A DNA stretch of 64,000 nucleotides. It comes from a virus. Each line of letters begins with the position of its first letter. Positions within the stretch are counted from its first letter, which is position 1. Location: IMG/VR virus record IMGVR_UViG_3300042387_001967. One strand, 5' to 3'. Below the pieces are notes generated by a model, which was given only the letters and a program-made list of their open reading frames with translations, was not told the DNA's origin and did no database searches. Both the position numbers and the translations under genes were made by a program. Shown here in pieces: positions 19,913-38,933 of the stretch.

Positions 19913-20134
19913 CTAGACGGCCTGAGCGATGCTCGCTTCGGCTTCCTCGATCATCAGACCGGTGCCCAGCATGCGAGCGAGGGTCGCGACCTTCGTCAGC
20001 TGCTCGTCTTCGCGCGGCCAGCCGGCGGCGAGGAGCTCTTGCTGCTGCGGCGAGGCCGAGGCAGATTTTTCCAGGGTGGAGAATCCGGAACGAACAACAG
20101 CCCCGGTGATTTGGAGAAGCGCGAGATTAGTCAT
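19913..20134 (-). CDS. small hypothetical (virion block) protein
   Basis: 73 aa; contains EKSAS and TKVAT. Confidence 0.6.
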   Translation of the reverse strand: MTNLALLQITGAVVRSGFSTLEKSASASPQQQELLAAGWPREDEQLTKVATLARMLGTGLMIEEAEASIAQAV

Positions 20135-20170
20135 GGCGGAATCCTACGCCAGCCGGTCTCGCAGCTCAAG

Positions 20171-22084
20171 CTATTTCTGCATGACATCCGCCAGCGGCAC
20201 ACGCCCAGCGAGGACGTCCTCGAGCTGCTGCTTCGTCAGTCCCATCATCGTGCGCGCGGCGTCTTCCATCGCTGGATTGAGGATGGGCCGCGGCAGACGA
20301 ATGCGGCCCCACCGCTCTCCATTCAGCAGCCGATTGTCGAAAAGGCCACCGGGGATCGGTGTCAGGTTGCGAAGATTTACCATCTCGCCGTTTTCGACGT
20401 CGATCGGATCGCGCTCGTCCAGGTCGCCGTCCGTGAATGGCGCGAGGCGATACTTGCCCTTGCCGGAGTTGCGCGTGTTGATGCCGGCGCCCGCCAGCAG
20501 CGCGCGGAACTTGTGCCAGACAAACGGCTCGCCGATCTTTGGTAGCGTCTTGTCCGTGCGCAGTGCCATCCAGAAGTCGTGATTCTTCTGCCCGCGGATT
20601 GTGGCATTCTCCCGCATCAGCGAGTAGGCCCCGCTGGACAGTGTTGCAAAATTCTCGAGACCCGAGAAGCGTTTGGCCTGTGCGAATTCGCCACCGCCGC
20701 GCGTCGGCTGCTGATTCTGGTCGTAGCTGCCCGTGCCGCGGGCGCTGATCTTGCCTTCCGACGTGTGGTGGAGCTTGTGGACGAAACCGTAGCCCACCGT
20801 CACCGGCGCATCCAGCGTCCGGCCTTCTTCCGGATCGTAGACCATCTCCTGTGACTGCACGCCATTCTCGCGTTCCAACTGGTCGATGTAGTCGTTCCAG
20901 TTTTGTCCCTTCGGCAGGTAGCTGGGCAGCTTCAGCGCGTGCCCCAGCTTCTTGGCGACCTTGCCGAGCCGCAGCTCGTGCTGTGACGCCGGGTTCGCCC
21001 GGGAGACCAGGGACAGCGGATTGAGCAGCGCATCCAGCGGCTGTCCGTCCTCCGTCCGCGGCATCTGGTCGTCGGGAATGATCTTCGAGACGGTCGCCTT
21101 GGCGCCCTGCCGCAGCACGATCTTGTCTCCGACTTCCGTCGGCTTCAGGAATTTCAGCACCACCTTGTAGCCGTTCTTGGTCGCGCGCGCGGCGATGACC
21201 TGGGCCGGCTGCTGTCCGTGCCACACCTGAGCGGCGTCGCGGCGCTGCTGCCTCAGCGCCTTGCTGAGGCGCCCGATGTTTGCGCCGTCTGACGACAGCG
21301 TGCGAGGCATCGTCGCGAGCATGACGGGGTCGCCAGACTCCAGCACGGTGCCAGGTCGCACCAGCCCGTGTTCGTCAAAATTTTCCAGCTTCTCCTTGGT
21401 GAAGCGGTTCGGGAAGAGGGCGCGGTAGTGGCTGAGACCTGTCTTCAGATTGTCCGAGCGGTCCTGGTGCATCACCTTGTATTGGACGGCGGACAGGCGC
21501 TTGGCGAACGACTCGCTGACAGGCATGGCGTCGTCCATTCCGAAGCCCTTGAATGGCACCAGAGCGATGCGGGCGTTCAGCCCCATGTTTTGCACGCCGT
21601 TGTCGTCCGTGTAGGACGATGCTGCCATCATCTGCCCGGGTTTGAAGGTGTCACCTTTCTTGAGCAGTGCGCGGGAGGTTATGCCCGATTTCTGGTTGAA
21701 AAATTGTTCGTTGTACAGGTCGACGTCCGCCGTCTCGCCGTCATCGTAGGAGACGCGGATGTAGTCCGGCGTGACGCTGATGACGCGACCGGCACGCTTG
21801 GCGCGGACGGCGCCCATGTTCTCGCCGACGATTTCGTCAAAGCTGCGCCCTTCGGGGTCGGACGTGTCCAAGTTCTGGATCAGCGGAGCTTCGCCCTTGT
21901 CGATCGCCAGCGCCTGGTTCGCGAACCGCGCGCCGTAGAACAGCCGCGGCGCTTGCACTGCTCCCGCCAGCGGAATCATGTTGGTGTGTGACCCAAACTG
22001 CTGCGAGGGCGAGGACAGCTCGTAATCGACATCCGGATCGTCATCCGGCACCTCTTCGAGGCGGTTGTTGCGTACGACGTGCAT
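20171..22084 (-). CDS. multisubunit RNA polymerase: beta C-terminal half fused to beta' N-terminus
   Basis: Beta motifs: NMIPL..EAPLI, GLNARIALVPFKGFGMDD, GDKIVLRQGAK, QMPRTEDGQPLDALLNPL..SRAN, HKLHH..KISARGTG..QQP. These are followed by a beta' N-terminal pattern: ENGEMVNLRNLTPIPGGLFD..WGRIRLPRP. Confidence 0.92.
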   Translation of the reverse strand: MHVVRNNRLEEVPDDDPDVDYELSSPSQQFGSHTNMIPLAGAVQAPRLFYGARFANQALAIDKGEAPLIQNLDTSDPEGRSFDEIVGENMGAVRAKRAGRVISVTPDYIRVSYDDGETADVDLYNEQFFNQKSGITSRALLKKGDTFKPGQMMAASSYTDDNGVQNMGLNARIALVPFKGFGMDDAMPVSESFAKRLSAVQYKVMHQDRSDNLKTGLSHYRALFPNRFTKEKLENFDEHGLVRPGTVLESGDPVMLATMPRTLSSDGANIGRLSKALRQQRRDAAQVWHGQQPAQVIAARATKNGYKVVLKFLKPTEVGDKIVLRQGAKATVSKIIPDDQMPRTEDGQPLDALLNPLSLVSRANPASQHELRLGKVAKKLGHALKLPSYLPKGQNWNDYIDQLERENGVQSQEMVYDPEEGRTLDAPVTVGYGFVHKLHHTSEGKISARGTGSYDQNQQPTRGGGEFAQAKRFSGLENFATLSSGAYSLMRENATIRGQKNHDFWMALRTDKTLPKIGEPFVWHKFRALLAGAGINTRNSGKGKYRLAPFTDGDLDERDPIDVENGEMVNLRNLTPIPGGLFDNRLLNGERWGRIRLPRPILNPAMEDAARTMMGLTKQQLEDVLAGRVPLADVMQK

Positions 22085-22087
22085 GCG

Positions 22088-24184
22088 CTAGGACTGAGCC
22101 GCGGCGAGGCGCGGATCGGTTGTGATCTGGTTGCCGTAGATCTGACTGATGATCCCCATCCGATCGGGTGAGTTTACCATGTCGGACTCGCGCATGTAGC
22201 GCGGCGGCTGAGGCGTAGTGAGACGCTTCTTCAGCATCCAATCGAACATCGTGTCTCCAAGCGCTCCGTAGGATGCGCGATAGAGTCCAAGCCGCGGAAA
22301 CAGCGCGTTGGCGCCGGCGTGATTGTTGAGCATCTGCCCTGATTCGGGCGCGAGATGCCGGAAAGGCTTCGGCACGGTCCGTCCGGTCTCCGGGTCGATC
22401 GAGCCGGGCACACCGGCGGTGCCAGTGGTGTAACTATCGTTGCCGTTGACCTGCAGACGCCCAGGTGCAGGAGGTCCGATCATCGGCGGCGGCGGACTTG
22501 CGACTTCGGGCGGCTCGGGCGGTATGCCGGTGGTGTAGGATCGTCCGTTCACCACCGTGTTGCCCTGCGCGGCCGCCTTGATTTGACCGACACGCTTCTG
22601 CAGCCGATCGATGCGGTTGCCGATCAGCCGTCCGGCGATCGTGTTCTCGCTGTCGCTCGCGGACGCCGCGCCGTCCGCCTGGGCCTTGCCCATCGCGGCC
22701 GTCATCTTCGCCTGCTCCTTCTGCACTGCGGACGTGGCCTTTGCCTGCTCCTTCTGCAGTGCAGCCGTGGCCTTTGCCGTCTCGAGCTGCAACTTCAGCA
22801 CTTCTTTTTCCTGCTGCTGCTTGCCCAGCTCTTGCTGAAAGCGCTGCTCCTGCTCCATCTGCGCCTGCGTGGCTGCCTGCTCCGTCTGGCCCTGCTGCTG
22901 TGCAGCGGCCTGCTCGGCCTGCATGGCTTTTTGTTCGGCCTGCATCACCGCAGGGTTTGCGGCCGGCGGTGGCGTGATGGAGTTGGCAGTCGCCTGCTGC
23001 TGATTCTGCATCCGCAGCGCTGGGTTCTGTCCGAGCTGCGGCGGCACTGGGACGGCGCCGGCCGGCGCTGGTCCTAGCGCATACTTGGTGAGTTCGGCGA
23101 CGAGACCCACCAGCGACGCAGCGGACTTCTCCACAGGCTGCGGCTGCTTCTCGTTGCGATGCTTCGTGCGCGCGCGAGTTTCCGTGCGCAGGCGGCGGCG
23201 TGTATCGCGCCCCAACCGCTGCAGCAGCGTGTTTGAGAGCTGCAGGTTTCCGACAGGCATCTGAATTTGCGTTTCGATGTCGCCGGGGTTCGCTGTCGGC
23301 AGCGTGACGCTCGCCGTCCCGGCTGAGTCCAGAGCCAGCCGCTTCTGCTCCATGTCGCTGTTCTGCTTCGCCTTGTAGAGCAGTATACCGAGGGCACCCA
23401 GGCCGAGCCCGCCGGCTCCCAACCAGACTTCCTTCGGGATGGATTTGATCGGGTTCTCGGCTGGCGGTTTCGCGCGGTCGTGTGCAAAGGATTTCGCCGC
23501 CTCGGTCGCCGCGTTGTCGACGTTGTAGAGAGTGCCGACTCCTTTCATCGCGAGATCTTTGGTCGGCGCGAGCGCGATAGCACCGAGCCCGGTGAGGACG
23601 TTCTTGCTCGCGATCTGATGTCCGCCGACGGCCCCGAGCAGGGCGTTCAGCCCGCCCATCAGCGTGCGCTCCTTGTCCCACTTCCACGGTTGGAAGGTGC
23701 TGCCGATCGGACGCTTCGTGTCGGCCGCCTGGTCGAAGAACGCGGTCGTGCCGAGTGCTCCGAGAACGCTGGCCAGCGCTTGGGTTTTGGTGTTCGCACA
23801 CTTCTCGATGACCTCGATGTTCAGACTGCGCGCCAGGGCCTTGGACGGCGAGTTGTGCCGCATGATCATGGCCTTCACGTCATCGCAATGATCGCGGACT
23901 TCCCGGATGACTTGCGCGACGGCCGACTTCGCGAAGCCACGCTCACGGTAGGCCGGCAGAATGCCGACCGCGTAGTATCCGACTTTTTTTTCGCCCTCGT
24001 CGAACTTCTGCCAGCCGACAAAACCCACCGGGTCCGCGGTGGCAGATTCTTTCACGAGATACAGCCCGCCGTTGAACTGATTGGTCTTCAGTCCGTGCGG
24101 CCAGTAGGACGGATCCTCGTGCAGGATCCGACTCATGATGCCTTCGACGATGGGCAGCTCGGAGGCCGCGGCAACTTTGATCAT
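22088..24184 (-). CDS. GNAT acetyltransferase / glycine-zipper / coiled-coil multidomain protein
   Basis: Likely start MIKVAA at 24184. GNAT motif A VGILPAYRERGFAKS and NSPS; then GxxxG hydrophobic helices and a Q/A-rich coil. Confidence 0.75.
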   Translation of the reverse strand: MIKVAAASELPIVEGIMSRILHEDPSYWPHGLKTNQFNGGLYLVKESATADPVGFVGWQKFDEGEKKVGYYAVGILPAYRERGFAKSAVAQVIREVRDHCDDVKAMIMRHNSPSKALARSLNIEVIEKCANTKTQALASVLGALGTTAFFDQAADTKRPIGSTFQPWKWDKERTLMGGLNALLGAVGGHQIASKNVLTGLGAIALAPTKDLAMKGVGTLYNVDNAATEAAKSFAHDRAKPPAENPIKSIPKEVWLGAGGLGLGALGILLYKAKQNSDMEQKRLALDSAGTASVTLPTANPGDIETQIQMPVGNLQLSNTLLQRLGRDTRRRLRTETRARTKHRNEKQPQPVEKSAASLVGLVAELTKYALGPAPAGAVPVPPQLGQNPALRMQNQQQATANSITPPPAANPAVMQAEQKAMQAEQAAAQQQGQTEQAATQAQMEQEQRFQQELGKQQQEKEVLKLQLETAKATAALQKEQAKATSAVQKEQAKMTAAMGKAQADGAASASDSENTIAGRLIGNRIDRLQKRVGQIKAAAQGNTVVNGRSYTTGIPPEPPEVASPPPPMIGPPAPGRLQVNGNDSYTTGTAGVPGSIDPETGRTVPKPFRHLAPESGQMLNNHAGANALFPRLGLYRASYGALGDTMFDWMLKKRLTTPQPPRYMRESDMVNSPDRMGIISQIYGNQITTDPRLAAAQS

Positions 24185-24224
24185 GCGGAATGCTACCGCA
24201 CTTTCCGTCGCAGGTAAAGAGGAA

Positions 24225-24260
24225 GCAGCCGCCGCCACCGGTGAGGGTGGCGGCGGCTGC
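24225..24260 (-). terminator. 15-bp stem hairpin followed by a pyrimidine tract
   Basis: GCAGCCGCCGCCACC-ggtgag-GGTGGCGGCGGCTGC; on the minus strand followed by TTCCTCTTTACCT. Confidence 0.65.
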
Positions 24261-24290
24261 GACGATTTCCTTGTAGTGGTTGCGCGCGGC

Positions 24291-25190
24291 TTACGCCGCG
24301 CCGTCCTCTTTTGCGGCGTCGAACGCCGCTGCGACGCTGCCCTCGAACGCAGCGTGAACTTCCAGCCCGCCTCCGCCGTGTTGCGCACTATAGCGAGCGG
24401 TCCGCGCGCTGTCGCGTTTGACTTTCGCCGCCTTACGCATCTCGCCCTCCCCAGTAAGCTCGCGAACAAGCACGGGGGGCGCTCCGATTATTTTCGGAAT
24501 CGTTGCCTTGTCGAACCCACCAAAGCACTGGCACGCGGCGAGGAATGGGTCCCACGCTGTGACGTGGTTCTCGGCGAACTCCCGCGCCGACGGGGCCAGT
24601 CTGGCCATGAGGTCTGACGCGCTGGAGCCAGGCACTACCATGCCTTTCACCTCTTTCCATGTCCGAGGGTCCAGATACTGCTCGGCATTCTTGCTGTTCG
24701 GCAGGTGTCCGTCCATCCGCTTTAGAGGATCCAGGTAGCCCTTCATGATCCCCCAGCCTGCCGCCGTGGGCAGCAGGCGTCCCATGTAGGCCGACAACCA
24801 CGGGATCTCGACCATTTTGATCGTATAGTCGCGCCGCGCCTCGTCACCATCCAGGACTGTCACCGTCGCATCCGGATGTTTGCCGGCTTTCATGCCGGCC
24901 GCGACCATCTCTAGCGTAAGCGACACCACGTGATGTCGCGTGTCCGACTCCTTCCTGCGGAACATAGCAGCCAAGACCGCCAGGATTTTACTGTCGTCGT
25001 CAAGGACGGTGAGTGCGCACATTTCCATGCTGGAGAGGAAGCAGCCACTCCATCGGTGACCGTAGTCGGTGCTGAGACGTTCCGGAGACGTCTGTTGTAG
25101 CCGCGGGTCCTCCAGTGGACTCAATGGCAACTGGGCAATTGAGGTTTTATATTGCTGCTTAGTCTCTTGATCGTAGTTGTCGTTATCCAT
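24291..25190 (-). CDS. hypothetical protein
   Basis: 299-aa ORF after an (AACC)n leader. Confidence 0.7.
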   Translation of the reverse strand: MDNDNYDQETKQQYKTSIAQLPLSPLEDPRLQQTSPERLSTDYGHRWSGCFLSSMEMCALTVLDDDSKILAVLAAMFRRKESDTRHHVVSLTLEMVAAGMKAGKHPDATVTVLDGDEARRDYTIKMVEIPWLSAYMGRLLPTAAGWGIMKGYLDPLKRMDGHLPNSKNAEQYLDPRTWKEVKGMVVPGSSASDLMARLAPSAREFAENHVTAWDPFLAACQCFGGFDKATIPKIIGAPPVLVRELTGEGEMRKAAKVKRDSARTARYSAQHGGGGLEVHAAFEGSVAAAFDAAKEDGAA

Positions 25191-25252
25191 TTTACTTGGT
25201 TGGTTGGTTGGTGTTCGTTACGCGAACGGCATGAATTGCCGCTAGCAATGTA

Positions 25253-26384: not shown

Positions 26385-26397
26385 GGTGTCGGGTTGG

Positions 26398-27174: not shown

Positions 27175-27241
27175 TTTGCCTCTTTTGAACTTCCCGATCG
27201 AGTATCATTTAGCCGTTTGCATGATACCTTTCTTCTGGGTC

Positions 27242-27814: not shown

Positions 27815-27841
27815 GATGATGTGATGGTTGTTGGTGTACGC

Positions 27842-27877
27842 AAAAAGCCCGGTCACCGCACTGGGCGATGACCGGGC
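27842..27877 (-). terminator. intrinsic terminator
   Basis: GCCCGGTCA-loop-TGACCGGGC followed by TTTTT on the minus strand, just downstream of the 27910 stop. Confidence 0.75.
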
Positions 27878-27909
27878 AGATGAACCGCAAAGAAATTCTA
27901 CATTTTGTC

Positions 27910-29385
27910 CTACGCGCTGGCCACGGCGTCCGACGCAACCGCCGGCTCGAGAATCGGAGACTGCTCCTGCTTCATCGCCATGAACTGATCGACAGGGTCC
28001 GGGTTGTTCGGCTGCAACCGTTCGCCCTGCTCCTGCATCATGTCGCCGCCCTCGGCATCCTCACTCATGCCGCCGGCAGAGTCAGACGTGAGTTCCTCCT
28101 GCATGGCGTCGCTGACTGCCGGATCTCCGGACGGCATCCGACCTTCAAGCGCGGGGTCCGCCGCCAGCATATCGTCGCTGATTGCCGGGTCTTCGGCCAT
28201 CATCTGTTCGAGCTCTGCGGAGAGCTGTGTGTCCGCCGCGGTCTTTTCCAGAATCTGCGGACGGAAATAAGTCAGCTGCAGCAGGGTGGCAATTCCGGCG
28301 AATTTTTCGATCTGCTCTTCGCCGTGCGACAGGACCTCGTCATACAGACTCGGCACGAGATCGGCGAACTCCGCAGCGGCCAGCGCTGCGACAACGGGCC
28401 GGAGCCTGGCGGACTTGCAGATCGCAACCGCCGCAAGCGCGCGCTCTGGTAGCGGCAGCGGCTCATCCGATGCTCCGCGGGCGAACTCCACCAACGCTTC
28501 CATTCCGCCGTCGCGCTGGGTTTGCACCATCCCGGCGATACCATCCCGGGCTGCCTTGTGCAGCAAGTCCGAGGTGACACACACCGATGCCGATTTTTCG
28601 TGGGCCATCTGATCCACAGCCAGCATCAGGAATTCCTGGGCCGCAGCTTCACAGTCCGCCTCCGCCCACAACGTCGCGGCCGACTTCAGCTGCTCTTCGT
28701 CGCCAACCTCCGGCTCACTCAGGTGGCCGTCGGCAGCCACCTGGCGCACGCGCTTCGGGTATCTGGACTTCGGTGTCTGGACTGTCGGAAAGGCTTTGCG
28801 CAGTGTCGCGAAAGTGACCCCGCCGGCCGCGAGCGCAGCCAGCAGCGGCAGCGCCACAGGCGTCGCCGAGATCAGGTCATACAGATTCATCTTGGCATCC
28901 ACTGCCGGAGCCGCCGCGGCACGTTTCGACACCTCGAGGTCCGCGGCGAGAAGCGCCTCGCCCTGCGCTTCGTCCAGCAGCTTCTGCTTGTGCTTTTTCT
29001 GCAGGTAATTGTAGACGGCCTGGGTCAGCGCGTAAGCGCCGCCGGCGCCCAGAATGCCGCCCGTGACAGCCAACCCGGGCGCGATCCACCGATTCACGTC
29101 TGACGCAGACTTCTGCTGCGGGTGCGGGGATGAGATGTAGAGCGTGTCGTCGTTCAGGCGCGATTTGTCCGCGAGCTCGTTCTCCTCGCGCAGCGACTTC
29201 AGATAGTTCAGCAGCGCCACGACCGCGCTGGCGCCGGCCCCCAGGGCCATGCCGCCGACGGCCATGTTGCGCACGAGACTTGTTCCGCGCGCGTCTTGCG
29301 CGGCGGCTACATCCGGCGAGTTGACCGTGCCGGTGAGTTTACCGGCGGCTCCTCTTGCTACAGTTTCGATCAGGTTGGTTGGCAT
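27910..29385 (-). CDS. glycine-zipper membrane-type virion protein (putative)
   Basis: Three hydrophobic GxxxG helices; five K-x-A-[AS] motifs; acidic tail. Confidence 0.7.
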   Translation of the reverse strand: MPTNLIETVARGAAGKLTGTVNSPDVAAAQDARGTSLVRNMAVGGMALGAGASAVVALLNYLKSLREENELADKSRLNDDTLYISSPHPQQKSASDVNRWIAPGLAVTGGILGAGGAYALTQAVYNYLQKKHKQKLLDEAQGEALLAADLEVSKRAAAAPAVDAKMNLYDLISATPVALPLLAALAAGGVTFATLRKAFPTVQTPKSRYPKRVRQVAADGHLSEPEVGDEEQLKSAATLWAEADCEAAAQEFLMLAVDQMAHEKSASVCVTSDLLHKAARDGIAGMVQTQRDGGMEALVEFARGASDEPLPLPERALAAVAICKSARLRPVVAALAAAEFADLVPSLYDEVLSHGEEQIEKFAGIATLLQLTYFRPQILEKTAADTQLSAELEQMMAEDPAISDDMLAADPALEGRMPSGDPAVSDAMQEELTSDSAGGMSEDAEGGDMMQEQGERLQPNNPDPVDQFMAMKQEQSPILEPAVASDAVASA

Positions 29386-29389: not shown

Positions 29390-29869
29390 TCAGAACTGCA
29401 TGTATTGGACTTCTTGGTAAGTGATGAACACGACCCAGGAGCCTTCGTAGGGTTGCTTTTCCAGCACGGAGATCGCCAGCGTCGGCGTCTCCGGGTCTGC
29501 GGATGCTTTCAGCAGGCGGTTGTACTCGGCCAGGTCCGCCGGTTTCGATAGTGTGAGTATTTTGGTCTCGGGGTTGACGAGTCGCACGGATGACGGCTGC
29601 TCCGCCATCTGCCCGCGGATGGACGGTTTGCTTCCCCACCTGGTATCGGTCGGTCGCGTCGGCGTTTCGTCGTCATCCTTGGTTGCGTCCTTGTCGTCCG
29701 GACCCGCGGGCGGACGGTCTTCAAACCGATCCGCATCGACTTTCGCGAACTTCTCCTGGTCCTCCGCCGAAAGCGCGGAGGCGGATTTTTCAAACATCTC
29801 TTCAGCGCTATCCATCAGCGCGGCTTCCTGCTCTGCGGGCGTTGAGCGTTTTGTTTTCGCGTCAGACAT
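29390..29869 (-). CDS. hypothetical (virion block) protein
   Basis: 159 aa; FEKSAS. Confidence 0.7.
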   Translation of the reverse strand: MSDAKTKRSTPAEQEAALMDSAEEMFEKSASALSAEDQEKFAKVDADRFEDRPPAGPDDKDATKDDDETPTRPTDTRWGSKPSIRGQMAEQPSSVRLVNPETKILTLSKPADLAEYNRLLKASADPETPTLAISVLEKQPYEGSWVVFITYQEVQYMQF

Positions 29870-30446
29870 TGTAGCGTGAGCGTGTTGTTTTTGCGGCGGG
29901 TTGAACTTCGTTCGCCATGTCCTCCTCGATGTCGTTCTTCAGCTTTCGATACGCCTTGACCTTCTCCATAATGATCGCGTTCTCCGCCGATGACTGCTCG
30001 GCGTTGCGTGACAGCAGAAACGCGAGCGAACCCAGTGCAGTTCCGGTGAGCGCACCGCCGGCTGTGAGGGTCTTGAGGATGTTCCCGCCGATGTTGTCAT
30101 GCAACGCCACGGCGGCCGGCAGCAAGGCAGCCCCGGCCTCCTTGCGCAGCTCCTCCTGGTTTGCGAGCGCGCGACGGACACTGTCCGTGAAGCGCCGATA
30201 AGAGGCGTGCCACGTCGCAGTTTTTTCGAGGTTGCGGAAGAGAATGCACACCGGCGAATGCGCGTCGCCGAATCCTTCAAAAAGATCTGCGGCCAGCTTG
30301 CACAGCTGACGCTCAAAAGGGATGCCCTCTTCGCTGGTCATGACGCGCTGTCTGCCCTGCCGACGCAGCATCTCGTTGCGTCCGATTCCGAACGCGGAAG
30401 CGGCCAGTCCTTGTCCAAACGCGAATCCTACAGCGGTTGCATTCAT
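29862..30446 (-). CDS. glycine-zipper protein
   Basis: Start MNATAV at 30446; TLTAGGALTGTALGSLAFLL followed by a coil. Confidence 0.65.
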   Translation of the reverse strand: MNATAVGFAFGQGLAASAFGIGRNEMLRRQGRQRVMTSEEGIPFERQLCKLAADLFEGFGDAHSPVCILFRNLEKTATWHASYRRFTDSVRRALANQEELRKEAGAALLPAAVALHDNIGGNILKTLTAGGALTGTALGSLAFLLSRNAEQSSAENAIIMEKVKAYRKLKNDIEEDMANEVQPAAKTTRSRYNV

Positions 30447-30451
30447 AAATG

Positions 30452-31315
30452 TTACAGATAGTCGGTGATTGAAACTTGTCCCAGAATGTTGCGGCTCGGA
30501 CCGGCGTCGTAGCCATACCCCATCGCGCCGCCCAGCATACCACCCGCAATCATTGGTAGCAAGCCTTTGGAGCCCAGAAAACGCACGGCCAGCGCGCCAA
30601 TGCCGGCACCAGTCGCAGTGCGGAGTAGGCGATAGAGGTCCTCCTGATCGGAAGATCTGGCACTCGCAAGAGCGCGCAGGATCAGCGCGCGCTGTCCGGA
30701 GTTGATCGACGGATCGCTGTTCAACAGTTGAATGACGAGAGGCAACCAGTCCGTCGCTGCCTGCTTTGAGAGCCACGCCTCGCGGCGGTTGTGCTTGCTC
30801 TGCGCCCATGCAGTGCCGGCCGCGCCAACGCCGCCGGCAAGCAGCGCAGCCATGAGCGCGCGCTTGATCGGACTCCCACCCTCCCGCTTGCTGGGTCCCC
30901 ACAGATAGCCACCCACTCCGCCGGCCAGCGCCGACAGCAGCCCGGCCGTTCCGACGGCCTTGCCCTGCGACGAACTCCCCCAGTCAAGCGCCTTGCCGAT
31001 GCCGCTGGCAATCGAATCGTTCCACTGCCGCGCGGGGGTTTTCGGAATGCGCTGCAGCGGCGCATACCCGTTGTTGGCCGCTTCTTGCAGATGCATCATC
31101 CGGTAGGCCGGATCGAAACTCAGCTTGTACTCGTCGGGAGTCATATACACCCGGGAGTCGTCTGGCGAGAGCCCAATGGAAGCCTTCGGATGTTGGAACG
31201 AAATTTTACCGTCAGGTTCGTTCCGAAAATCCCACACCTCGCCCTGCAGGTGGTGCGGAATGGACTTCGGAACCGCGCCGTGCGGTATGAGCGGATGCAC
31301 GATCTCCTCGCTCAT
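30452..31315 (-). CDS. glycine-zipper membrane-type protein
   Basis: Four GxxxG hydrophobic segments; LSKQAA. Confidence 0.7.
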   Translation of the reverse strand: MSEEIVHPLIPHGAVPKSIPHHLQGEVWDFRNEPDGKISFQHPKASIGLSPDDSRVYMTPDEYKLSFDPAYRMMHLQEAANNGYAPLQRIPKTPARQWNDSIASGIGKALDWGSSSQGKAVGTAGLLSALAGGVGGYLWGPSKREGGSPIKRALMAALLAGGVGAAGTAWAQSKHNRREAWLSKQAATDWLPLVIQLLNSDPSINSGQRALILRALASARSSDQEDLYRLLRTATGAGIGALAVRFLGSKGLLPMIAGGMLGGAMGYGYDAGPSRNILGQVSITDYL

Positions 31316-31551: not shown

Positions 31552-31569
31552 CGCATCGAGACTATACGA

Positions 31570-33441
31570 TTATTGCTGCTGTCCGGCAAGCATTTGCCCG
31601 ACTTGGGCGCGACCTTGCGAACCAGCCTGCGCGCGCATCTTTTCCATGGCGTCTTTCGCCGCGGCGTAAAGCGTCGGATTGATTGCCTCGGCCCGCTGCA
31701 TCTCCTTGCGGTGCGAATTCGGCTGCTGCGTGTGCATCTGGATCCACTGCTGGGCGATCTCCTGGGCGCGCTGCTGCACCATGGTCGGGTCAGCATTTGT
31801 ATCGACGGCGTAATCCAACGGAGAAGCGGGGGCGCCGCCTGCGCCGGCCGCCGCACCAGCCCCGCCCTGAGCGGTCTGCTGCATGGACTGCTCGGCCGCT
31901 GCCATTGCGAGATCGGCCATGGAACCCTGCGTGCGTTCCTTCTCGTAATTCTTCGCAAGCTCTTCGGCTCCGCGCTGAATCTCCTGATCCTCCTCGATGG
32001 CCCGAATGTTCGCGGCCTCCGGGTCGGTGACTCCGATGTCCGGGTAGACATCCTTTCGGGGGATCTCGCGGTTTGCGGCGAGCTGCATGCGCAGCTGCAT
32101 CCACTCGGCGTTGTATGCCACGACCGGACGCTTGAGTCGCACCTCCATCTCCTTCGATTCGAAGGCTCGCTGCACCGTGCGCGCGATAAATTTGAGCAGC
32201 CCGTCGAGTTCTGCGTAGAGCCACTCATACTGCCGCTCGAACATGCGAATGGCATTCGGCAGCTGCTCCGGATTCAGCGTGCCACGGAATAATTCACGCG
32301 GGAATCCAAGCCCGTCGAACAGCTGGTTGGTGTATGCCTCCACGACGTCATACAGCACCATGGCCTTGCCTCCGCCGTCGAAGGTCTGCATCTCGATCGG
32401 GAACGGCACCGCGTGGATCGATGTGGCGTCCCTCCGGCGCGCGGCGATCATGTTCTGCATCTCCGAGCGCCAGCGCGACATCAGTGTGGTGAGCACGGCG
32501 TCGCCGATGTTTCCACCGAAGTTCGGACTCAGCACTCTCGTCGGATGCAGGAATTCCTGCGCGACGGCGAAGTCCGCCTTCCGGTAAATCGCCAGTTGGT
32601 AGAGCGCATCGTAGTGCATCAGCACTTCCGGCACTGCCCATCCGGAATCGGAGACTCCGCACGGCGTCGGCGATCGAAAATGATGCACCTCGCCCTTGCG
32701 GAATCGATAGTCCTTGTTCTTCGAGATCGCCTCCAGCAGACCGCGCGGCGTGTTGTTGATCTCGTGCAGCTTGTTGTGCTTGACCCTGGCCTCCATGTCC
32801 GGAGGAATCCGGTAGATGTATTCCGTCGTGTCCGCGTGGTGCGGCGAGTCCAGATCCACGTAGCGCGGGTCCAGGAAGATGATGGAGAAGCGGTCAGGCG
32901 CAGCAGACGGCTTGTCGCGGAATTCCAACCTCACAGTCGGCAGATCGGCCATCTTGCGCTTTTGTTTCGGCAGCTTCGCCGCCGCTGCCATGTCCGGCAC
33001 CTCGTAAACCATATCGGACCAGTGATACTTCACCAAATGTTCCGGAAATATGTCCAACGAAATGGCGCGCTGGAGTCCGTCGCGGTTGTCGACGAGCCAG
33101 CGATCGAACGGCTCGACGCAGCGGACGAACGCCTGGCCGTAGATGGCCCACTCTGTGCCGGCCTTCTGCATCTTCGAGAAGATGCGCAGCGTTTCCGTCA
33201 GCAGCCGCTCCAGCTTCTTCTGTTCGTCCTTGTCGCCCGCGTCGACGAATTCGATCCCGGTGATGAAATAGGAAATTACCCGGTTGCATACTGCTCCGTA
33301 CAGACGGTTGGTCCGGTAGAGATAGAGACACAAGTCGAACGTGGACTTGATGTCGCTCGGGAATGAATCTGTCGACGGAAGCAGGAATGGATCTCCAAAC
33401 TTTTTGGAACCGTTCAGAAAGGAGTTGGAGATGACGGCCAT
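31570..33441 (-). CDS. putative portal protein
   Basis: 623 aa. The N-terminal pattern GDPF..P...Y.AVCNRVISYFIT...YGQAFV resembles large-phage portals by recall, and the gene sits in the virion block. Confidence 0.6.
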   Translation of the reverse strand: MAVISNSFLNGSKKFGDPFLLPSTDSFPSDIKSTFDLCLYLYRTNRLYGAVCNRVISYFITGIEFVDAGDKDEQKKLERLLTETLRIFSKMQKAGTEWAIYGQAFVRCVEPFDRWLVDNRDGLQRAISLDIFPEHLVKYHWSDMVYEVPDMAAAAKLPKQKRKMADLPTVRLEFRDKPSAAPDRFSIIFLDPRYVDLDSPHHADTTEYIYRIPPDMEARVKHNKLHEINNTPRGLLEAISKNKDYRFRKGEVHHFRSPTPCGVSDSGWAVPEVLMHYDALYQLAIYRKADFAVAQEFLHPTRVLSPNFGGNIGDAVLTTLMSRWRSEMQNMIAARRRDATSIHAVPFPIEMQTFDGGGKAMVLYDVVEAYTNQLFDGLGFPRELFRGTLNPEQLPNAIRMFERQYEWLYAELDGLLKFIARTVQRAFESKEMEVRLKRPVVAYNAEWMQLRMQLAANREIPRKDVYPDIGVTDPEAANIRAIEEDQEIQRGAEELAKNYEKERTQGSMADLAMAAAEQSMQQTAQGGAGAAAGAGGAPASPLDYAVDTNADPTMVQQRAQEIAQQWIQMHTQQPNSHRKEMQRAEAINPTLYAAAKDAMEKMRAQAGSQGRAQVGQMLAGQQQ

Positions 33442-33454
33442 CGGTTAAAGCGTG

Positions 33455-34261
33455 TCAGTTTGCGCGCGGACGATCGAAGTCCAGCCTGGCTGCCCCGGCG
33501 ACATTAGCGACGGATTTGCCGACCTCCGGGAACCGCGCGCTGGCGCTCTTCTCGCCCTCCGCAATGGGCTCGCCGGTTTCGTCGTCAACGCGATCGCTCG
33601 GTCGTCCGGAAACGACCGAAGGAACTCCGTCATGTAATACGCCTTGTTTTTCCACGCTGGCAGACTGAGGCAAAAAGCAGAGCAAGTCAATCCCAACCCC
33701 CGGATAAAGCTGCATCGGCGGCGCCAGGCACAGCACGCGCACGCGCGGGGAATCGCGGTGCTCCAGAAAGCTGATCTCCAGTTCAGATCCCGGGTGCGGC
33801 GCGAACATCGACTCCGAAGATCTCACCATGATCAGCAGCAGGTGCTTGACGCGATGCAGATGCATCGGCTCGGCGCTGCTCCACGCGACTGGTGATTTGA
33901 CGTCGCCAATCGGCGTGTGGAACACCAGCGTGAGTTTCTTCCTGGTGCGATCGCTCAGGCACTTGGCCACGGCCAGCAACTCGCTCTCTGCCTCGGTGCC
34001 GAGCAGTTGCACAAGCACCGGTGGTATGCGTATTCCCGCTTCGCGAACCGTGACAATGGGCGAGTCCGGAATGTCATACTCCGGCGTCGGGACCGCAGGA
34101 ATGCGAATTGTGGCCTGCTCGATTTCGTCCGCTTCGATGACCTCGCTCAGGTCTCCGCTGCGCATTCTCGCCACCAGCGCGTCGGTGGCGTCACCTGGGT
34201 TCGGGGGTCTGGATCCGGACTTCGCGCTCGAGTCCGGCGGCATGGTGGGTTGTGAGTGCAT
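33455..34261 (-). CDS. hypothetical (virion block) protein
   Basis: 268 aa; GEKSAS near the C-terminus. Confidence 0.65.
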   Translation of the reverse strand: MHSQPTMPPDSSAKSGSRPPNPGDATDALVARMRSGDLSEVIEADEIEQATIRIPAVPTPEYDIPDSPIVTVREAGIRIPPVLVQLLGTEAESELLAVAKCLSDRTRKKLTLVFHTPIGDVKSPVAWSSAEPMHLHRVKHLLLIMVRSSESMFAPHPGSELEISFLEHRDSPRVRVLCLAPPMQLYPGVGIDLLCFLPQSASVEKQGVLHDGVPSVVSGRPSDRVDDETGEPIAEGEKSASARFPEVGKSVANVAGAARLDFDRPRAN

Positions 34262-34907
34262 TGATTCTGGTAATGTGACGTTCGACTAGGTCGTAGGTCA
34301 TGGGTTGCTTGTCGATTCTGCCGTCTATTTTGTGGTGCCGGCTGACGAACATACGGCGCTGTCCATCTGCGCCCCGTTCCATCGTCGCGACGATTCGGTG
34401 CGGTGCGAATTTGTCAGCCAGCGGTATCAGCTCCGGGTGCTGCGTCAGGGAGACGTCCACGCTCGTCGGCCAGCCGGCGTCGTAGCGCAGCGTGAACCAG
34501 CCGCGTAGCCCGAACGCGTTGAACGCGAGAACGCAGATCGACAGCGCGCAATCGGTGGCCAGCTGCATCGCTTCCGAGAAAGTTGCCGCCGACGCCCATC
34601 CCACCATGGCCTCCACGCAGGTGCGCGTCACCCGCGCGGGTGCCACGCTGCTCAGCGGCTGGCCGACGACGTCGCAGATGCGCGCAGCCCGCCCGGTTCG
34701 CATCCGTCCGCGATACGGCTTGCTTTTGGAAAGCAGCCGCTTGGCAGTAATCTGCGAGCAGTTCAGCAGCTTCGCAACCGCAGCGCAGCGGTTCGGGAAG
34801 CCGTCGGCATACGAGGACAGGTATTGCATCAGCAGCGGAGTCGACTCCGCTGGCAGCAGACGGTTCTCCGCCCTGCCGATGACACCACCGGCCGGTCCCG
34901 CTGACAT
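34191..34907 (-). CDS. putative HTH DNA-binding protein
   Basis: CAAVAKLLNCSQITAKRLLS fits a helix-turn-helix pattern. Confidence 0.45.
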   Translation of the reverse strand: MSAGPAGGVIGRAENRLLPAESTPLLMQYLSSYADGFPNRCAAVAKLLNCSQITAKRLLSKSKPYRGRMRTGRAARICDVVGQPLSSVAPARVTRTCVEAMVGWASAATFSEAMQLATDCALSICVLAFNAFGLRGWFTLRYDAGWPTSVDVSLTQHPELIPLADKFAPHRIVATMERGADGQRRMFVSRHHKIDGRIDKQPMTYDLVERHITRINALTTHHAAGLEREVRIQTPEPR

Positions 34908-35090
34908 TTACTTCGAGCCCATGATAGTCTTGAAGAATCCGGACACGTTGCGCTCGCGCCGCGTGTCCTGCTTCACATAACTCGCATTCAGCGCGCTGCG
35001 GCGGGGCTCCGCAATGATCGCTGTGCTGTTGCCGTAACCTTGGTGGCGGGCGTTGCGGATCTGCTCTTGTGTGGGTTGGGATTGGCTCAT
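34908..35090 (-). CDS. small hypothetical protein
   Basis: Start MSQSQP at 35090. Confidence 0.55.
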   Translation of the reverse strand: MSQSQPTQEQIRNARHQGYGNSTAIIAEPRRSALNASYVKQDTRRERNVSGFFKTIMGSK

Positions 35091-35094
35091 GGAA

Positions 35095-36906
35095 TTAGTC
35101 GGGTAGTTTGAGGGTCTTCCCCCGCAGGTTGCTGGGGCTGACCCACTCCTTCTTACCCGTGCGCCGGTTGACGAGCAACTGATAAATTCGACCGTCAGAT
35201 CCGACACGTGCGCCGTGCGCCAGTCGGACGTCGATGCCGGCTTTTTCAGACTCCGGCCCCGCGATCGGATCCACGAAGCCGAACTGCGTGGCGCTGACTG
35301 CCGTCATGTCGTCCGTGATGGCATTCGGGTCGCCGATGCCGCCGGGTCCCATCTTGGTGATGCGACGCTTCTGCTCGAGGATGTGCATCGGGTTGATCTC
35401 CTCCAGCGCTGTGACCAGCGGATTGGACTTGAGGTAGCCCATCGTGTATCCGCCGAACGCGTCCGGGCCCACAGGGTCCAGGGTGCGCATGCGGCTCAGC
35501 CGTCCCATCATCGCGCGCAGGGCATGTCCGTGGTCGAGCTTGATGCGCTCGGCCATCAGGCGGTCCACCGTGTGGACGCGGTCGTTCGGCAGGCTGTCGC
35601 GGTCGTCCGTCTCAGCCAGGCCGCGGTTCACGGCCAGCAGCTTCTCGGTGGCAGCCAGCAGGCCGTCGATGCCCACCGGTGCATACTTCTCGTGCTCGTC
35701 GTCGTCCGCCAGGTAGCGGTGATGCGCCATGGGCGACTTCATCGGCGCTTTCGGCATCGGCTTCGGGACACCGATCGGGACGTAGGTCGATGCCGCCTTC
35801 GCAAACGCAGTCGGGCCATAATCCTGCGGATTGGCAAGCTGGTCCTCGTAAATGGGCACCTCACCCATCAATTGCCGAAGGGCGCGCGCCGTCACATTGC
35901 CGTGCAGCGCGTTATCCCGATGGGTCAGGTTGAACCGATCCGCCACCCACTTCCGACGATCGTCAGGCGTCTTGTCGAAATTCCTGATGAAGCCCTGCCG
36001 GGTGTTGAACGTCATGACGTCATCATCCACCATCTCCACCCGATGCAGCGGCTCATCCTCCTCTGGCTCGATCTCGGGATGTTCCAGCCCCTGCGCGACG
36101 AGGTAGGCGCGCAATTTCTCCAGTGCGACATCAGCGTGCTTGTCCTCCACCGATGCGTGCACATCCCCGGTGTGGGCGTCATTCACGGCCAGGCCCGAAG
36201 CTTGCAGCTCCTTGAGGATCGCGTGCCAGTTCTTCCGCAGCCCCACGCCCTGCAGCTTGTCGCCGGACAGCCGGAAAGTCTTCGCCATCTTTTCCATCGG
36301 AAACTCCAGATACTTCGGATCAATCTTCCCCGTCGGATGGATGATCTGGACGTGCGGCACGTCGCCGGCATACCGGCCGTGCCCGGGCTCGAAGTGCTTC
36401 CACAGTTCCTTCGGATTCTTCGCGCGCTCGATGAGCTGCTTGATCTCATCGATCTTCAGGTCGTGATGCCGCGCGGCAAGGATCGGCTCCTTCTCTTCGT
36501 CCGACATGGCGTCCCACTCCTCGTCGCTCAGATGTCCCCACAGCGACTTCCCTGGGGCCAGCTCGACGCCGTGCAGGCGCGTGTCTGGCGCGTCCCGCAG
36601 CAGGGCTTCGAGATCGATCCGCAGCGGCACAGACTTCCGCTGGTTCATCGGGTGCGTCGCGTCGCCCTTGATGCGGTCCGTGTCGGGCTGGCCGAAGAAT
36701 GCGGACGGGCCGGCGAACGACGCCTTCCACGGTTCCTCCTTCAGCTTCTTCTCCCGGAATGCCAGCCACTCGTCGGCCGCCTTGCCGGGGCGCGCGAGTT
36801 CCAGCAGGTGCCGGTTCTCCGGGCGCGCAAGGATGTCGCCGGACAGCAGCCCGTGCTCACGGACGGAGTCCAGCGTTTCTTCGGGGATGTAGGACAGGAG
36901 TTTCAT
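35095..36906 (-). CDS. polyprotein: ART-like + acylphosphatase-like + RNA polymerase beta middle fragment
   Basis: C-terminal DDRDSLPNDRV, EEINPMHILEQKRRITKMGPGG and FGFVDPIAGPES form the beta fork/Rif region. Central KLQGVGLR..GLAVN is the acylphosphatase signature. N-terminal LDSVREHGLLS..GKIDPKYL is ART-like. Confidence 0.85.
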   Translation of the reverse strand: MKLLSYIPEETLDSVREHGLLSGDILARPENRHLLELARPGKAADEWLAFREKKLKEEPWKASFAGPSAFFGQPDTDRIKGDATHPMNQRKSVPLRIDLEALLRDAPDTRLHGVELAPGKSLWGHLSDEEWDAMSDEEKEPILAARHHDLKIDEIKQLIERAKNPKELWKHFEPGHGRYAGDVPHVQIIHPTGKIDPKYLEFPMEKMAKTFRLSGDKLQGVGLRKNWHAILKELQASGLAVNDAHTGDVHASVEDKHADVALEKLRAYLVAQGLEHPEIEPEEDEPLHRVEMVDDDVMTFNTRQGFIRNFDKTPDDRRKWVADRFNLTHRDNALHGNVTARALRQLMGEVPIYEDQLANPQDYGPTAFAKAASTYVPIGVPKPMPKAPMKSPMAHHRYLADDDEHEKYAPVGIDGLLAATEKLLAVNRGLAETDDRDSLPNDRVHTVDRLMAERIKLDHGHALRAMMGRLSRMRTLDPVGPDAFGGYTMGYLKSNPLVTALEEINPMHILEQKRRITKMGPGGIGDPNAITDDMTAVSATQFGFVDPIAGPESEKAGIDVRLAHGARVGSDGRIYQLLVNRRTGKKEWVSPSNLRGKTLKLPD

Positions 36907-37220
36907 AACGTCGCGCAGGTTGGTTGCGGCATGCTGCGTATCCAGACTGCCTCCACCCTGTGCTCGATCCCGCTCATGCCCAAAGGAGGGCGATGAGTAG
37001 TGACGTATTCAAGCGTTCCGCGCATGAGATCAGTCACCGCCTTGATTTGAGCATCGCACGTGTCTGACAATTCTTGCGTCAGAGTCCCGTCGCCGGGCAG
37101 AGAGATTACCATGAACCACATGTCTTCGTCCGCCGCCTTGCGTATCTCGAAAGGCAGAGCGAAAACTCCCAGCGCCTCATAGCCTCCATGTTGTGCTTGT
37201 GTCATTTGTGATTGTGTCAT
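36903..37220 (-). CDS. hypothetical protein
   Basis: Start MTQSQM at 37220. Confidence 0.55.
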   Translation of the reverse strand: MTQSQMTQAQHGGYEALGVFALPFEIRKAADEDMWFMVISLPGDGTLTQELSDTCDAQIKAVTDLMRGTLEYVTTHRPPLGMSGIEHRVEAVWIRSMPQPTCATL

Positions 37221-37221
37221 T

Positions 37222-37449
37222 TTATTGTAGATCCTCCGGTTTGCTGTATCCCCCAAGTGAGCACTCAGACACGCGCTCCGTGCCAGGTATCTGCACTCGG
37301 TAATGACGCACCTGGAATCTTACATCATCCCGAGGTTGCCTAAGCCCGCACGTGAGCAAATTGATCACATCTTCTTCCTGATCCCTGGTAGGCGGGGCAG
37401 CAGACTCCGTCGTAATTTCCACCTCGAATTTGTGCGTGGTTGTCGTCAC
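37222..37449 (-). CDS. small hypothetical protein between 24-bp direct repeats
   Basis: 75 aa, ATGA-coupled; ends GYSKPEDLQ like the upstream gene (GYIKPEDLS). Confidence 0.55.
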   Translation of the reverse strand: MTTTTHKFEVEITTESAAPPTRDQEEDVINLLTCGLRQPRDDVRFQVRHYRVQIPGTERVSECSLGGYSKPEDLQ

Positions 37450-38933
37450 GACAGATCCTCCGGTTTGATGTAGCCCTCCAGCGCCAGCGTCATCAGCTCC
37501 CCAGGTCCAGGGGTGCCGACCGCGTCAGCGCCGCGACCGCGCGCCAGCTTAGCCAGGCGTTCGCGCTCGGAGTCGTCGAAGTCGTGCCGCTGCATGTAGT
37601 GGCGGACATACTCCTTGCGCCGGTAGCCTTCCATCCCCTCCTTGAAGTCTTCCCGCTGCTTAGCGGGCAGCAGCTTCAGCGGGTCGATGCCCCAGTTGAC
37701 CAGGGCGAACGCGCGGCGTGGTGTCGGCTTGGCCTCGAACTGCGCGCCGGTCCGAGCCTTGAAACTTTTCCACCTGGCGATCTGCTTCTCGTCTGTCTCG
37801 CCGCGGCGACCGGTGTGGTAGTTCTCATACCACTGCAGCCAGCCCTGCTTGTCGGTGTCGTCCAGCCAGTGCTCCGGCCACGCGCGCATGGACGCAAGGC
37901 GCGGACCTTTGCCGCCGTAGATCGCGTTGTAGGACTCCTTGAGTTCGTCCGGCGTGAAGTCCGGGGAGAACGCTGCGCGCTTGGTCAGCGGCACGTCGAA
38001 CGATTCCCACTGTCCCCAGATCTGTTCGGGCGTGAAGTCAGGATCGAACGGGACGGCTGCCGCCTTGGTCATGCGGTCGGCTGCGTCGATCGCGGTCCCC
38101 GCCATCCTCCAGCTTGCCGCCTTCTCGTGGCTGTAGAGGTTCGGCAGGTTCTGCTTGAGAATCGACTCCGCCACCTGGGCGCGGTCCAGCGCCGCCCGGA
38201 TGTCCTTCACGCGGTCCTCTGGCGCACGCGCGGGGTCGCGCTCCCACTTTGGGATCACCTTGTTGTACACGCGGTCCAGTGTATGCCTCGAATACTTCGC
38301 CCGGTTGGCTTCGAGAATCTCCGGCCCCCACCGACGCGCGAGCTCCTCGTCCGTCACCCCGAGGTCCTTGAACACCGAGTAGGCGTGCAGGTCCGACGAT
38401 CCCACCTTGAGACGATACTGCGCCGTGCGCGGGTCGAACGACACCCGCAGGGCCGAGCCGGTGCCGGGGCGCACGTTCAGATGCGTCTCGAGCTCGCCAT
38501 TGTCCCGGCGTCGCGTGTAGGCCCCAGGCAGCAGGCGCGACTGCATGGCTGGGGCATACTCGGATCCGTTCTCGATGAACGTCCCGCGCTCCGTCAGGTA
38601 AGGCACTCGGGCCAGCGTCACATTCTTGCGCTCGTCGAGCACCTCGTTGGTCACGTCGTCCACGAGCCGCATCGTTCCGCGCAGCCGGCGCACGAGCGAC
38701 TTGTCGTCCAGCAGCGCCTCGCGTTGCTCGGCTTTGGTGAACCTCGCCGGACCGACATGCTTCATGTCTTTCAGCTCCAGCCGGACTCCGCCGTAGGCGT
38801 AGCCGTTGACGTAGCGCTGCATGGACTGCATCACAGAGGTATCGATCGCCTCCCGCGTGGCGTCGGAATCTTCCGGGTCGCGCAGCGTGACGCCTTCTGG
38901 CGGCTCAGGGATGTCGGAGGATGGATTCGGCAC
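37446..38933 (-). CDS. RNA polymerase beta N-terminal fragment fused to a GWLQWY-type domain
   Basis: LARVPYLTERGTFIENGSEY..SRLLPGAY corresponds to the beta N-terminal motif (IPxMTxxGTFIING..SPG). C-terminal GWLQWY..GRR..DEKQIARW domain. Confidence 0.85.
   Translation of the reverse strand: MPNPSSDIPEPPEGVTLRDPEDSDATREAIDTSVMQSMQRYVNGYAYGGVRLELKDMKHVGPARFTKAEQREALLDDKSLVRRLRGTMRLVDDVTNEVLDERKNVTLARVPYLTERGTFIENGSEYAPAMQSRLLPGAYTRRRDNGELETHLNVRPGTGSALRVSFDPRTAQYRLKVGSSDLHAYSVFKDLGVTDEELARRWGPEILEANRAKYSRHTLDRVYNKVIPKWERDPARAPEDRVKDIRAALDRAQVAESILKQNLPNLYSHEKAASWRMAGTAIDAADRMTKAAAVPFDPDFTPEQIWGQWESFDVPLTKRAAFSPDFTPDELKESYNAIYGGKGPRLASMRAWPEHWLDDTDKQGWLQWYENYHTGRRGETDEKQIARWKSFKARTGAQFEAKPTPRRAFALVNWGIDPLKLLPAKQREDFKEGMEGYRRKEYVRHYMQRHDFDDSERERLAKLARGRGADAVGTPGPGELMTLALEGYIKPEDLS

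Follow-up and report, generated by a model that had tools for sequence, protein, structure and literature searches.

Lys-x-Ala-(Ala/Ser) motifs at leader ends and module joints of phage head proteins: candidate cleavage sites of a gp21-fold protease

Introduction

The phage T4 prohead protease gp21 processes gp23, gp22, IPI-III and Alt, cutting after Glu in (L/I)-x-E, and the herpesvirus assemblins cut their maturational and release sites, (V/L/I)-x-Ala-Ser, between Ala and Ser. The subject of this report is a short motif, K-x-A-[A/S], carried by proteins encoded in a 64,000-nt stretch of viral DNA (IMG/VR record IMGVR_UViG_3300042387_001967; the window), above all at positions 19913-38933 (the block), and by head proteins encoded elsewhere in the same genome; it is probably the site at which a head protease of the gp21 fold trims leaders and cuts cargo polyproteins. 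The window corresponds to genome positions 92381-156380, minus strand, of a single 184,016-bp contig with 61% GC, in which almost every gene lies on one strand. Positions are those of the window unless given as genome positions.

Processing of many head proteins at a short motif by a prohead protease is textbook knowledge (T4, phiKZ, SPN3US), and multi-domain injected proteins have been described too (PMC5512222). The SPN3US protease gp245 cuts itself, its motif is AXE (S/A/G-x-E), and essentially all of its cuts remove N-terminal propeptides (PMC10052503). For the polyvalent proteins, processing by an embedded zincin-like peptidase has been proposed, with no linear site named (PMC5512222). 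Virion mass spectrometry of Salmonella phage Arash found the RNA polymerase beta (gp206) and beta-prime (gp216) subunits among the most abundant proteins, and the words protease and cleavage are both absent (0 occurrences) from the paper that reports it, the sole one on a cultured phage of this clade (PMC10585845). What differs here is the Lys/Ala motif, the clade, and polymerase beta pieces as carriers of site-bounded exchangeable cargo. A reading made from the letters of the window (the sequence-only reading) had proposed the motif as a protease code for virion polyproteins and knew of no description of it; literature searches, with the 2020 phage G structure paper outside their scope, likewise found none of a Lys/Ala prohead-protease motif.

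Enrichment and form of the motif

All strings listed in the sequence-only reading were found in the minus-strand open reading frames (ORFs) named for them: EKSAS in proteins of 73, 159, 268 and 491 amino acids (aa), and, in others, EKSAA, EKCAN, IKAAA, QKSAS, SKRAA, LKSAA, EKTAA, EKTAT, CKLAA, SKQAA, EKMAK, AKAAS, EKYAP, EKAAS, TKAAA and TKRAA. Most of these match K-x-A-[A/S] as that reading stated it, but EKCAN, EKTAT, EKMAK and EKYAP do not, and EKYAP, which lies within a conserved beta piece, is probably not a site.

Enrichment was measured against 400 shuffles of each protein, by which composition is kept. In the block, K.A[AS] (a dot standing for any residue) was observed 17 times against 6.5 expected, a number reached by 1/400 shuffles, and the narrower forms [LFMIV].K.A[AS] (11 against 1.5) and EK.A[AS] (7 against 0.44) were reached by 0/400. 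Bare K-x-A was not enriched in the block (43 against 35 expected); the real signal is the tighter K-x-A-[A/S], with roughly one third of the block matches (~6/17) attributable to chance. K.A[AS] was not enriched in window positions 1-19912 (2 against 3.8), in positions 38934-64000 (9 against 6.1), in the tail module (6 against 5.7) or in all other genes (16 against 14.4). The excess predicted for 19.9-39 kb relative to other blocks remains once composition is allowed for and occurs in virion-protein blocks alone, above the Ala-rich background that might have explained it away. The main cluster of sites, overlooked in the sequence-only reading, lies outside the window in the head module (genome 7237-38703; K.A[AS] 43 against 12 expected), which contains the capsid gene, the protease gene described below and large multi-domain proteins, several proteins near the protease gene having 5-8 sites each.

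Across the whole proteome, EKSA (13 against 1.05 expected) and EKSAS (6 against 0.06) stand alone as strongly over-represented short words once tandem repeats inside single proteins are set aside. The strong pattern EK[SAT]A[AS] occurs 16 times against 0.66 expected, and the same pattern with Arg in place of Lys (ER[SAT]A[AS]), or with Gly or Ser in place of Ala, occurs 0 times. A DNA repeat was ruled out as the origin of the motif, as codons at the sites vary synonymously; this free variation indicates selection on the peptide and not on the DNA. The DNA pattern that encodes the motif was found 16 times on the coding strand, as often as there are in-frame sites, and once on the opposite strand. 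In the relatives described below, flanking positions are weakly informative, with a preference for a hydrophobic residue at -2 and for Glu at -1. The full motif is (hydrophobic)-x-Lys-x-Ala-(Ala/Ser, sometimes Gly/Asn/Thr).

Distribution across the clade

Megablast of the block against deposited phage records gave zero matches, the block being without a near relative among them. The closest cultured phages by protein comparison are Arash (OQ632216; 181 kb) and the Vibrio phages D69, D181 and D148, at ~30% identity; for Arash this holds in polymerase beta, protease, capsid and portal. By tblastn against Arash, the portal gene was placed at 31570-33441, the capsid gene at genome 37735-38703 and a homologue of gp222, the protease, at genome 33988-35454. 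The clade has four cultured members, and ~90% of its genes are unannotated.

Relatives were collected by scanning viral contigs with an alignment of the protease, which gave 80 loci, taken with up to 10 kb on each side, on contigs of up to 208 kb and 37-69% GC. In the head modules of 80/80 relatives, K.A[AS] exceeded per-protein shuffles 3-6-fold (z 3.4-14.7), and the motif thus co-occurs with the gp21-like protease family in every one of the 80. An unbiased count of all X.YZ patterns in 1205 distinct head-module proteins of the relatives placed K.AA (z 52) and K.AS (z 50) at the top, with EK.A and L.K.A heading their own pattern classes. The capsid protein of all relatives examined has K-x-A at a homologous N-terminal position ~30 residues in, followed by S, A or G and, in distant branches, by I, V, E, Q or T; in the phage studied here the capsid site is KKAS at residue 28. 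In Arash the motif is concentrated in gp218-gp225, immediately upstream of the capsid gene.

Head protease

The prohead protease that the sequence-only reading expected elsewhere in the genome is present as the gp222 homologue, whose fold is that of T4 gp21 and in which the motif stands, without variation, where the catalytic domain ends:

Genome 33988-35454 (L002:16988-18454): protease (gp222 homologue), 488 aa; catalytic domain, disordered linker and helical C-terminal domain

The protein has 346 relatives in metagenomes. Its AlphaFold model (m72b1c08b699c), built on 31 relatives and with a predicted local distance difference test (pLDDT) score of ~88 in the core, shows a domain modelled with confidence (residues 60-225), then disorder at 228-258 (pLDDT<50) and a helical C-terminal domain. 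The protease domain was aligned with T4 gp21 (5jbl_B) at a VIA-align Z of 10.3 (root-mean-square deviation 2.8, 136 residues aligned) and with herpesvirus proteases at Z 6.5-6.8, and gp21 provided the top three Foldseek matches to the model. Within the linker 228-258, 31 sequences that reach down to 32% identity all have K239 and A241, and S242 is conserved in at least 90% of them; such a conserved site at the exit of the protease's own catalytic domain is as expected for self-release. A second conserved site, K-S-A-[S/A], lies at aa 42-45, just before the catalytic core. Between this gene and the capsid gene (37735-38703 of the genome) site-rich small proteins are encoded, and the order is the same in Arash, from gp222 to gp226.

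Two further features of the family were observed. Inside the catalytic domain C169, C172 and C183 are invariant and H185 nearly so, a cluster resembling a zinc site, and the conserved helical C-terminal domain of ~230 aa is absent from T4 gp21.

Genes of the block and their sites

The block is taken to be a virion-protein block because the polymerase subunits are abundant in Arash virions (PMC10585845), and it is anchored as such by the portal gene inside it. By homology to Arash, the multisubunit RNA polymerase would be carried in the virion of this phage as well. In tblastn, the single 1525-aa beta chain of Arash (gp206) corresponds to four genes here. Scans of block and head-module proteins with Pfam and PHROGs assigned a family to few, most being unmatched. 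The genes of the block, with the fourth beta gene, are as follows:

37446-38933, minus strand: 495-aa protein; RNA polymerase beta piece 1 at aa 59-240 (tblastn to Arash gp206); linker sites EKAAS at aa 271 (38112-38123), TKAAA at aa 290 (38055-38066) and TKRAA at aa 318 (37971-37982)
35095-36906, minus strand: 603-aa protein (tblastn to Arash gp206); N-terminal domain 1-205, acylphosphatase-like middle module ~210-368, Pro/Lys-rich linker, beta piece 2 at ~391-603; sites EKMAK at aa 206 (36280-36291) and AKAAS at aa 370 (35788-35799)
33455-34261, minus strand: 268-aa protein, family unassigned; EKSAS at aa 238 (33539-33550), 30 residues before the C-terminus
31570-33441, minus strand: portal protein, 623 aa; no site; tblastn to Arash gp204 portal, E 1.5e-26
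30452-31315, minus strand: 287-aa glycine-zipper or transmembrane-like protein; SKQAA at aa 184 (30755-30766), which is KNAA in an 83%-identical relative (L014)
29862-30446, minus strand: 194-aa gene; CKLAA at aa 50 (30288-30299) and EKTAT at aa 75 (30213-30224)
29390-29869, minus strand: 159-aa protein; N-terminal leader ends in MFEKSAS at aa 28 (29777-29788)
27910-29385, minus strand: 491-aa protein; three hydrophobic Gly/Ala-rich helices with five sites between, at aa 92 (29101-29112), 154 (28915-28926), 234 (28675-28686), 264 (28585-28596) and 381 (28234-28245)
22088-24184, minus strand: 698-aa GNAT-containing protein, starting at Met96 of a 793-aa ORF (22088-24469); sites MIKVAA at aa 3 (24167-24178), EKCAN at aa 128 (23792-23803), EKSAA at aa 353 (23117-23128) and IKAAA at aa 536 (22568-22579)
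20171-22084, minus strand: RNA polymerase beta piece 3, 637 aa; Pfam Rpb2_6, E 9e-45; 30% identical to Arash gp206; no K.A[AS] site
19913-20134, minus strand: 73-aa protein; leader ends in TLEKSAS at aa 23 (20057-20068), TMEKAAS in L014
Genome 178250-181384: fourth RNA polymerase beta gene piece (tblastn to Arash gp206)

The beta pieces are separated by the portal gene and about ten others, and the last of them lies ~42 kb off. The 495-aa protein has a C-terminal passenger domain with GWLQWY after its three-site linker, and the 603-aa protein matches Pfam Rpb2_3 at aa 500-568. The 194-aa gene was missing from the supplied ORF list, being nested in the C-terminal part of a 346-aa ORF; it is 69% identical in L014 with both sites retained, and the N-terminal part of the longer ORF overlaps the 287-aa gene and is unconserved. 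The GNAT-containing protein is assigned its start at Met96 (ATG, window 24184), and hence begins M-I-K-V-A-A, because 74 of 123 homologue N-termini map to aa 90-100 of the 793-aa ORF; its Pfam GNAT domain spans ORF aa 130-216, with EKCAN directly after it.

Leaders that end in the motif at aa 3-47 are found in the 73-aa, 159-aa and GNAT proteins, the protease, the capsid protein and several head-module proteins. In the GNAT family the motif falls within the first 30 residues of 92/150 homologues, often after a few hydrophobic residues. Starts of the form M-x-K-x-A-[A/S] were observed in the GNAT protein (MIKVAA), in an 845-aa protein (MSKQAS; genome 17936-20473) and in Arash gp206 (MPKSAS).

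Conservation and module boundaries

Between this phage and L014, the motif Lys was kept at 14/16 sites and the motif Ala at 15/16, against 64% of other Lys and 60% of other Ala residues; the second and fourth motif residues toggle freely and the flanks drift, so that the sites are retained above background in changing linkers, as the sequence-only reading had asked to see. Thus the site of the 159-aa protein becomes LFEKSAA with the next 30 residues diverged, and in the 491-aa protein 5/5 K-x-A cores are kept while the fourth residue toggles between A and S, or is M at the aa 381 site. Among 86 homologues of the 495-aa protein, the Lys of its three sites is kept in 70, 59 and 73 and the Ala in 71, 54 and 77.

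The claim that sites fall at fold boundaries holds and turned out stronger than first made: genes of relatives start or end at the same positions, and Pfam cargo lies between sites. Beta piece 2 is the only part of the 603-aa protein common to its 57 homologues. Where it is encoded alone, the gene (33 cases) begins 5-39 residues before a conserved HHRYLADDDE marker; where it is fused, 20/20 homologues show K-x-[A/G]-x at a distance of 14-25 residues ahead of that marker, 15/20 in the strict form K.A[AS]. Its upstream partner varies and may be the preceding beta piece, an AAA_33 kinase-like domain, an inorganic pyrophosphatase, NUDIX plus acylphosphatase, or LigD plus DNA ligase, and the Pfam cargo is bracketed by sites (InPase 107-238 by sites 86/252; AAA_33 215-305 by 208/382; acylphosphatase 201-259 by 197/364). 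Among the 603-aa protein and its homologues P0122-P0125, relatives whose two flanks are 97-99% identical differ in the middle module (~210 aa, ~88 aa, none, or AAA_33 kinase-like), and in the form without it the two sites collapse to one; this points to an exchange of cargo in the very recent past. In certain relatives the linker of the 495-aa protein fuses beta piece 1 straight to piece 2. C-termini of GNAT protein homologues cluster at ORF aa 220-229 (5) and 440-469 (50/70), adjacent to the sites at ORF aa 223 and 448. This match of sites to boundaries, drawn from sequence comparison, is the strongest support for the polyprotein idea.

At aa 290-330 of the 495-aa protein (37971-38066, minus strand), two tandem copies of K-x-A-x-F-x-P-D-[LF]-[ST]-P were observed, a pattern unique in the proteome; 81-83 of the 86 homologues retain its Phe, Pro and Asp. 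It looks like a docking-type peptide placed directly after two cleavage-type sites.

Comparison with described systems

The system resembles T4 gp21 in protease fold (Z 10.3), in the position of the protease gene in the head module, in its motif-ended short leaders, in its scaffold-like proteins with many sites, and in having a hydrophobic residue at -2 relative to the key residue. The short leader common to unrelated head proteins and ending at a protease site also recalls the T4 capsid targeting sequence. It differs from T4 in that the key residues are Lys and Ala, that the protease has 488 aa with a helical C-terminal domain and a Cys/His cluster, and that internal joints of multi-enzyme chains are among the substrates; the T4 pattern [LI].E was not enriched in the head module (79 against 67.7 expected, z 1.5) or in the block (z 0.3). 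With phiKZ (gp175), 201phi2-1 and SPN3US (gp245) it shares a virion multisubunit RNA polymerase and many internal head proteins with a short motif, but there is no detectable sequence relation, and many sites here are internal joints between swappable enzymes on polymerase pieces. The phiKZ-type pattern [SAG].E was absent or depleted (z -1.1 in the head module, -2.4 in the block), as was A.E (z -0.6 and -2.0).

Herpesvirus assemblin has a related fold, a linker and a C-terminal scaffold-like part, with x-Ala-Ser after the catalytic domain, and the strict Ala followed by a small residue (A/S/G/N/T) is compatible with its Ala-Ser bond; Lys at P3, however, is outside the herpesvirus consensus. 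Polyvalent proteins are likewise long chains, delivered with the virion, of unrelated enzyme domains (among them GNAT, NUDIX, pyrophosphatase and ligase) with a fast-changing make-up, thought to be cut into units, the difference being that here a short motif tied to a capsid protease marks the joints and that carriers include RNA polymerase beta pieces. A Pfam scan of the block proteins gave no peptidase match. Arash has the same motif, clustered in gp218-gp225, but its 1525-aa beta subunit is unsplit and has no internal site.

Proposed cleavage and alternative explanations

Each computational check called for by the sequence-only reading favoured its interpretation. From these observations we infer that cutting occurs, that the gp21-like protease does it and that the products are injected. 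Motif-bearing proteins would be built into the prohead and then cut by the 488-aa protease, which would release itself at the invariant K239-A-A-S242, trim the short N-terminal leaders of the 73-aa, 159-aa and GNAT proteins and of the capsid protein at about residue 30, and chop the scaffold-like proteins with 5-8 sites. Polyproteins would be cut at module joints, so that in the block the beta pieces would be freed from passenger enzymes and the transmembrane-like segments from one another. The fragments would then be packaged and, it is presumed, ejected along with the DNA.

As to the scissile bond, we lean towards Ala-(Ala/Ser), with Ala as P1 and Lys as P3 by analogy with assemblin, since two strict residues two apart (Lys and Ala), a free middle residue and a small one next fit a P3/P1 strand pattern. 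A cut directly after Lys, with the hydrophobic residue as P3, is a serious contender that we rate somewhat lower; it draws on the hydrophobic residue two before Lys, which parallels (L/I)-x-E of T4. Proteins ending in K-x-A, counted to fix the bond, came to 5 cases, about the chance level.

Several points weigh against cleavage by this protease. To our knowledge, the gp21-type and phiKZ-type proteases studied cut after Glu, and a Lys/Ala specificity is without precedent in the phage branch of the fold. H107 and S157/S159/S161, invariant in the 31 protease sequences, are only candidates for the catalytic His and Ser, a profile of the family gave no match to PDB sequences, and the AlphaFold model of the 603-aa protein (mean pLDDT 48.7) is too low in confidence to place sites in linkers. 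At the residue-3 sites of three proteins, a cut would remove just 3-5 residues, and cleavage alone hardly accounts for such sites. Finally, Arash gp223, which has 6 sites, was 100% covered in virion mass spectrometry (PMC10585845), so that uncut copies exist or cuts after Lys are masked by trypsin.

The last two of these points, together with the occurrence of the motif in short N-terminal leaders of many unrelated proteins, would suit a docking or capsid-targeting signal for scaffold, portal or protease that is left uncut. We regard this as improbable: most sites are internal, several to a protein and at gene boundaries of relatives, none of which a tag needs, and the invariant site falls in the disordered stretch that follows the protease domain, the place of self-cleavage in the related SPN3US enzyme (PMC10052503). 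The two roles could well go together, by analogy with the capsid targeting sequence of T4.

About as improbable, or slightly more so, is cutting of the same sites by another enzyme, either a host protease or a metallopeptidase module in a packaged polyvalent protein, as embedded zincin-like peptidases have been proposed as processors of such proteins (Iyer et al. 2017, PMC5512222). Against this, the motif both flanks the gp21-like catalytic domain and marks the capsid N-terminus, which are classic prohead-protease substrates, besides accompanying the gp21-like protease family throughout the 80 relatives. That the invariant Lys is instead modified or cross-linked, by GNAT acetylation or an isopeptide bond, with no cleavage, would accord with its strict requirement (ER[SAT]A[AS] 0 times against 16 for EK[SAT]A[AS]) and with the GNAT acetyltransferase encoded in the block; we think it very unlikely, as it leaves unexplained the match to gene boundaries, the position at leader ends and the required Ala at +2 and small residue at +3. 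That the motif follows, without specific function, from shared ancestry or from a helical composition rich in Ala, Lys and Glu is hardly credible, for although Ala makes up 10.7% of the proteome and about 6 of the 17 block matches arise by chance, shuffles that keep composition are exceeded in the block, the head module and all 80 relatives down to 37% GC, the strong form admits neither Arg in place of Lys nor Gly/Ser in place of Ala, and the carrier proteins are mutually unrelated, so that a composition artefact is largely refuted by shuffles, substitution counts and relatives at 37-69% GC.

If the motif is the site of the head protease, mature virion proteins and cargo enzymes become predictable from sequence across the clade, and the specificity range of the gp21/assemblin fold is widened from Glu to a Lys/Ala code. 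Modules inserted between cleavage sites on a conserved carrier would provide an exchange mechanism for injected enzymes. Cuts after Lys would be invisible to tryptic proteomics, which may explain why the motif went unnoticed in the Arash data, and Salmonella phage Arash makes the predictions testable in a tractable host. A wider picture, offered tentatively and with some doubt, is of a large, almost uncultured clade of 150-217-kb phages whose gp21-fold protease has an assemblin-like specificity, cutting Lys-x-Ala-Ser between Ala and Ser, and whose beta pieces carry hot-swappable cargo enzymes (kinase-like, pyrophosphatase, NUDIX, acylphosphatase, ligase, GNAT) that would be freed in the capsid and injected to condition the host, gene fission and cleavage being interchangeable routes to one set of polypeptides.

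Further observations in the genome

At genome 72827-74068, remote from both clusters, a 413-aa protein with three strong sites (KSAA, EKSAS and KSAA) is encoded, which may be a further packaged protein. Adjoining the block, a phage-encoded peptide deformylase was found at 19317-19844 on the minus strand (Pfam E 4.5e-27). At 38978-41626, also on the minus strand, a DEAD/Helicase_C helicase has a Pfam Intein_splicing match at aa 203-464, under the family cut-off, and intein-type inserts were seen as well among beta piece 2 homologues (PF14528 LAGLIDADG) and protease homologues (PF05203, PF14890).

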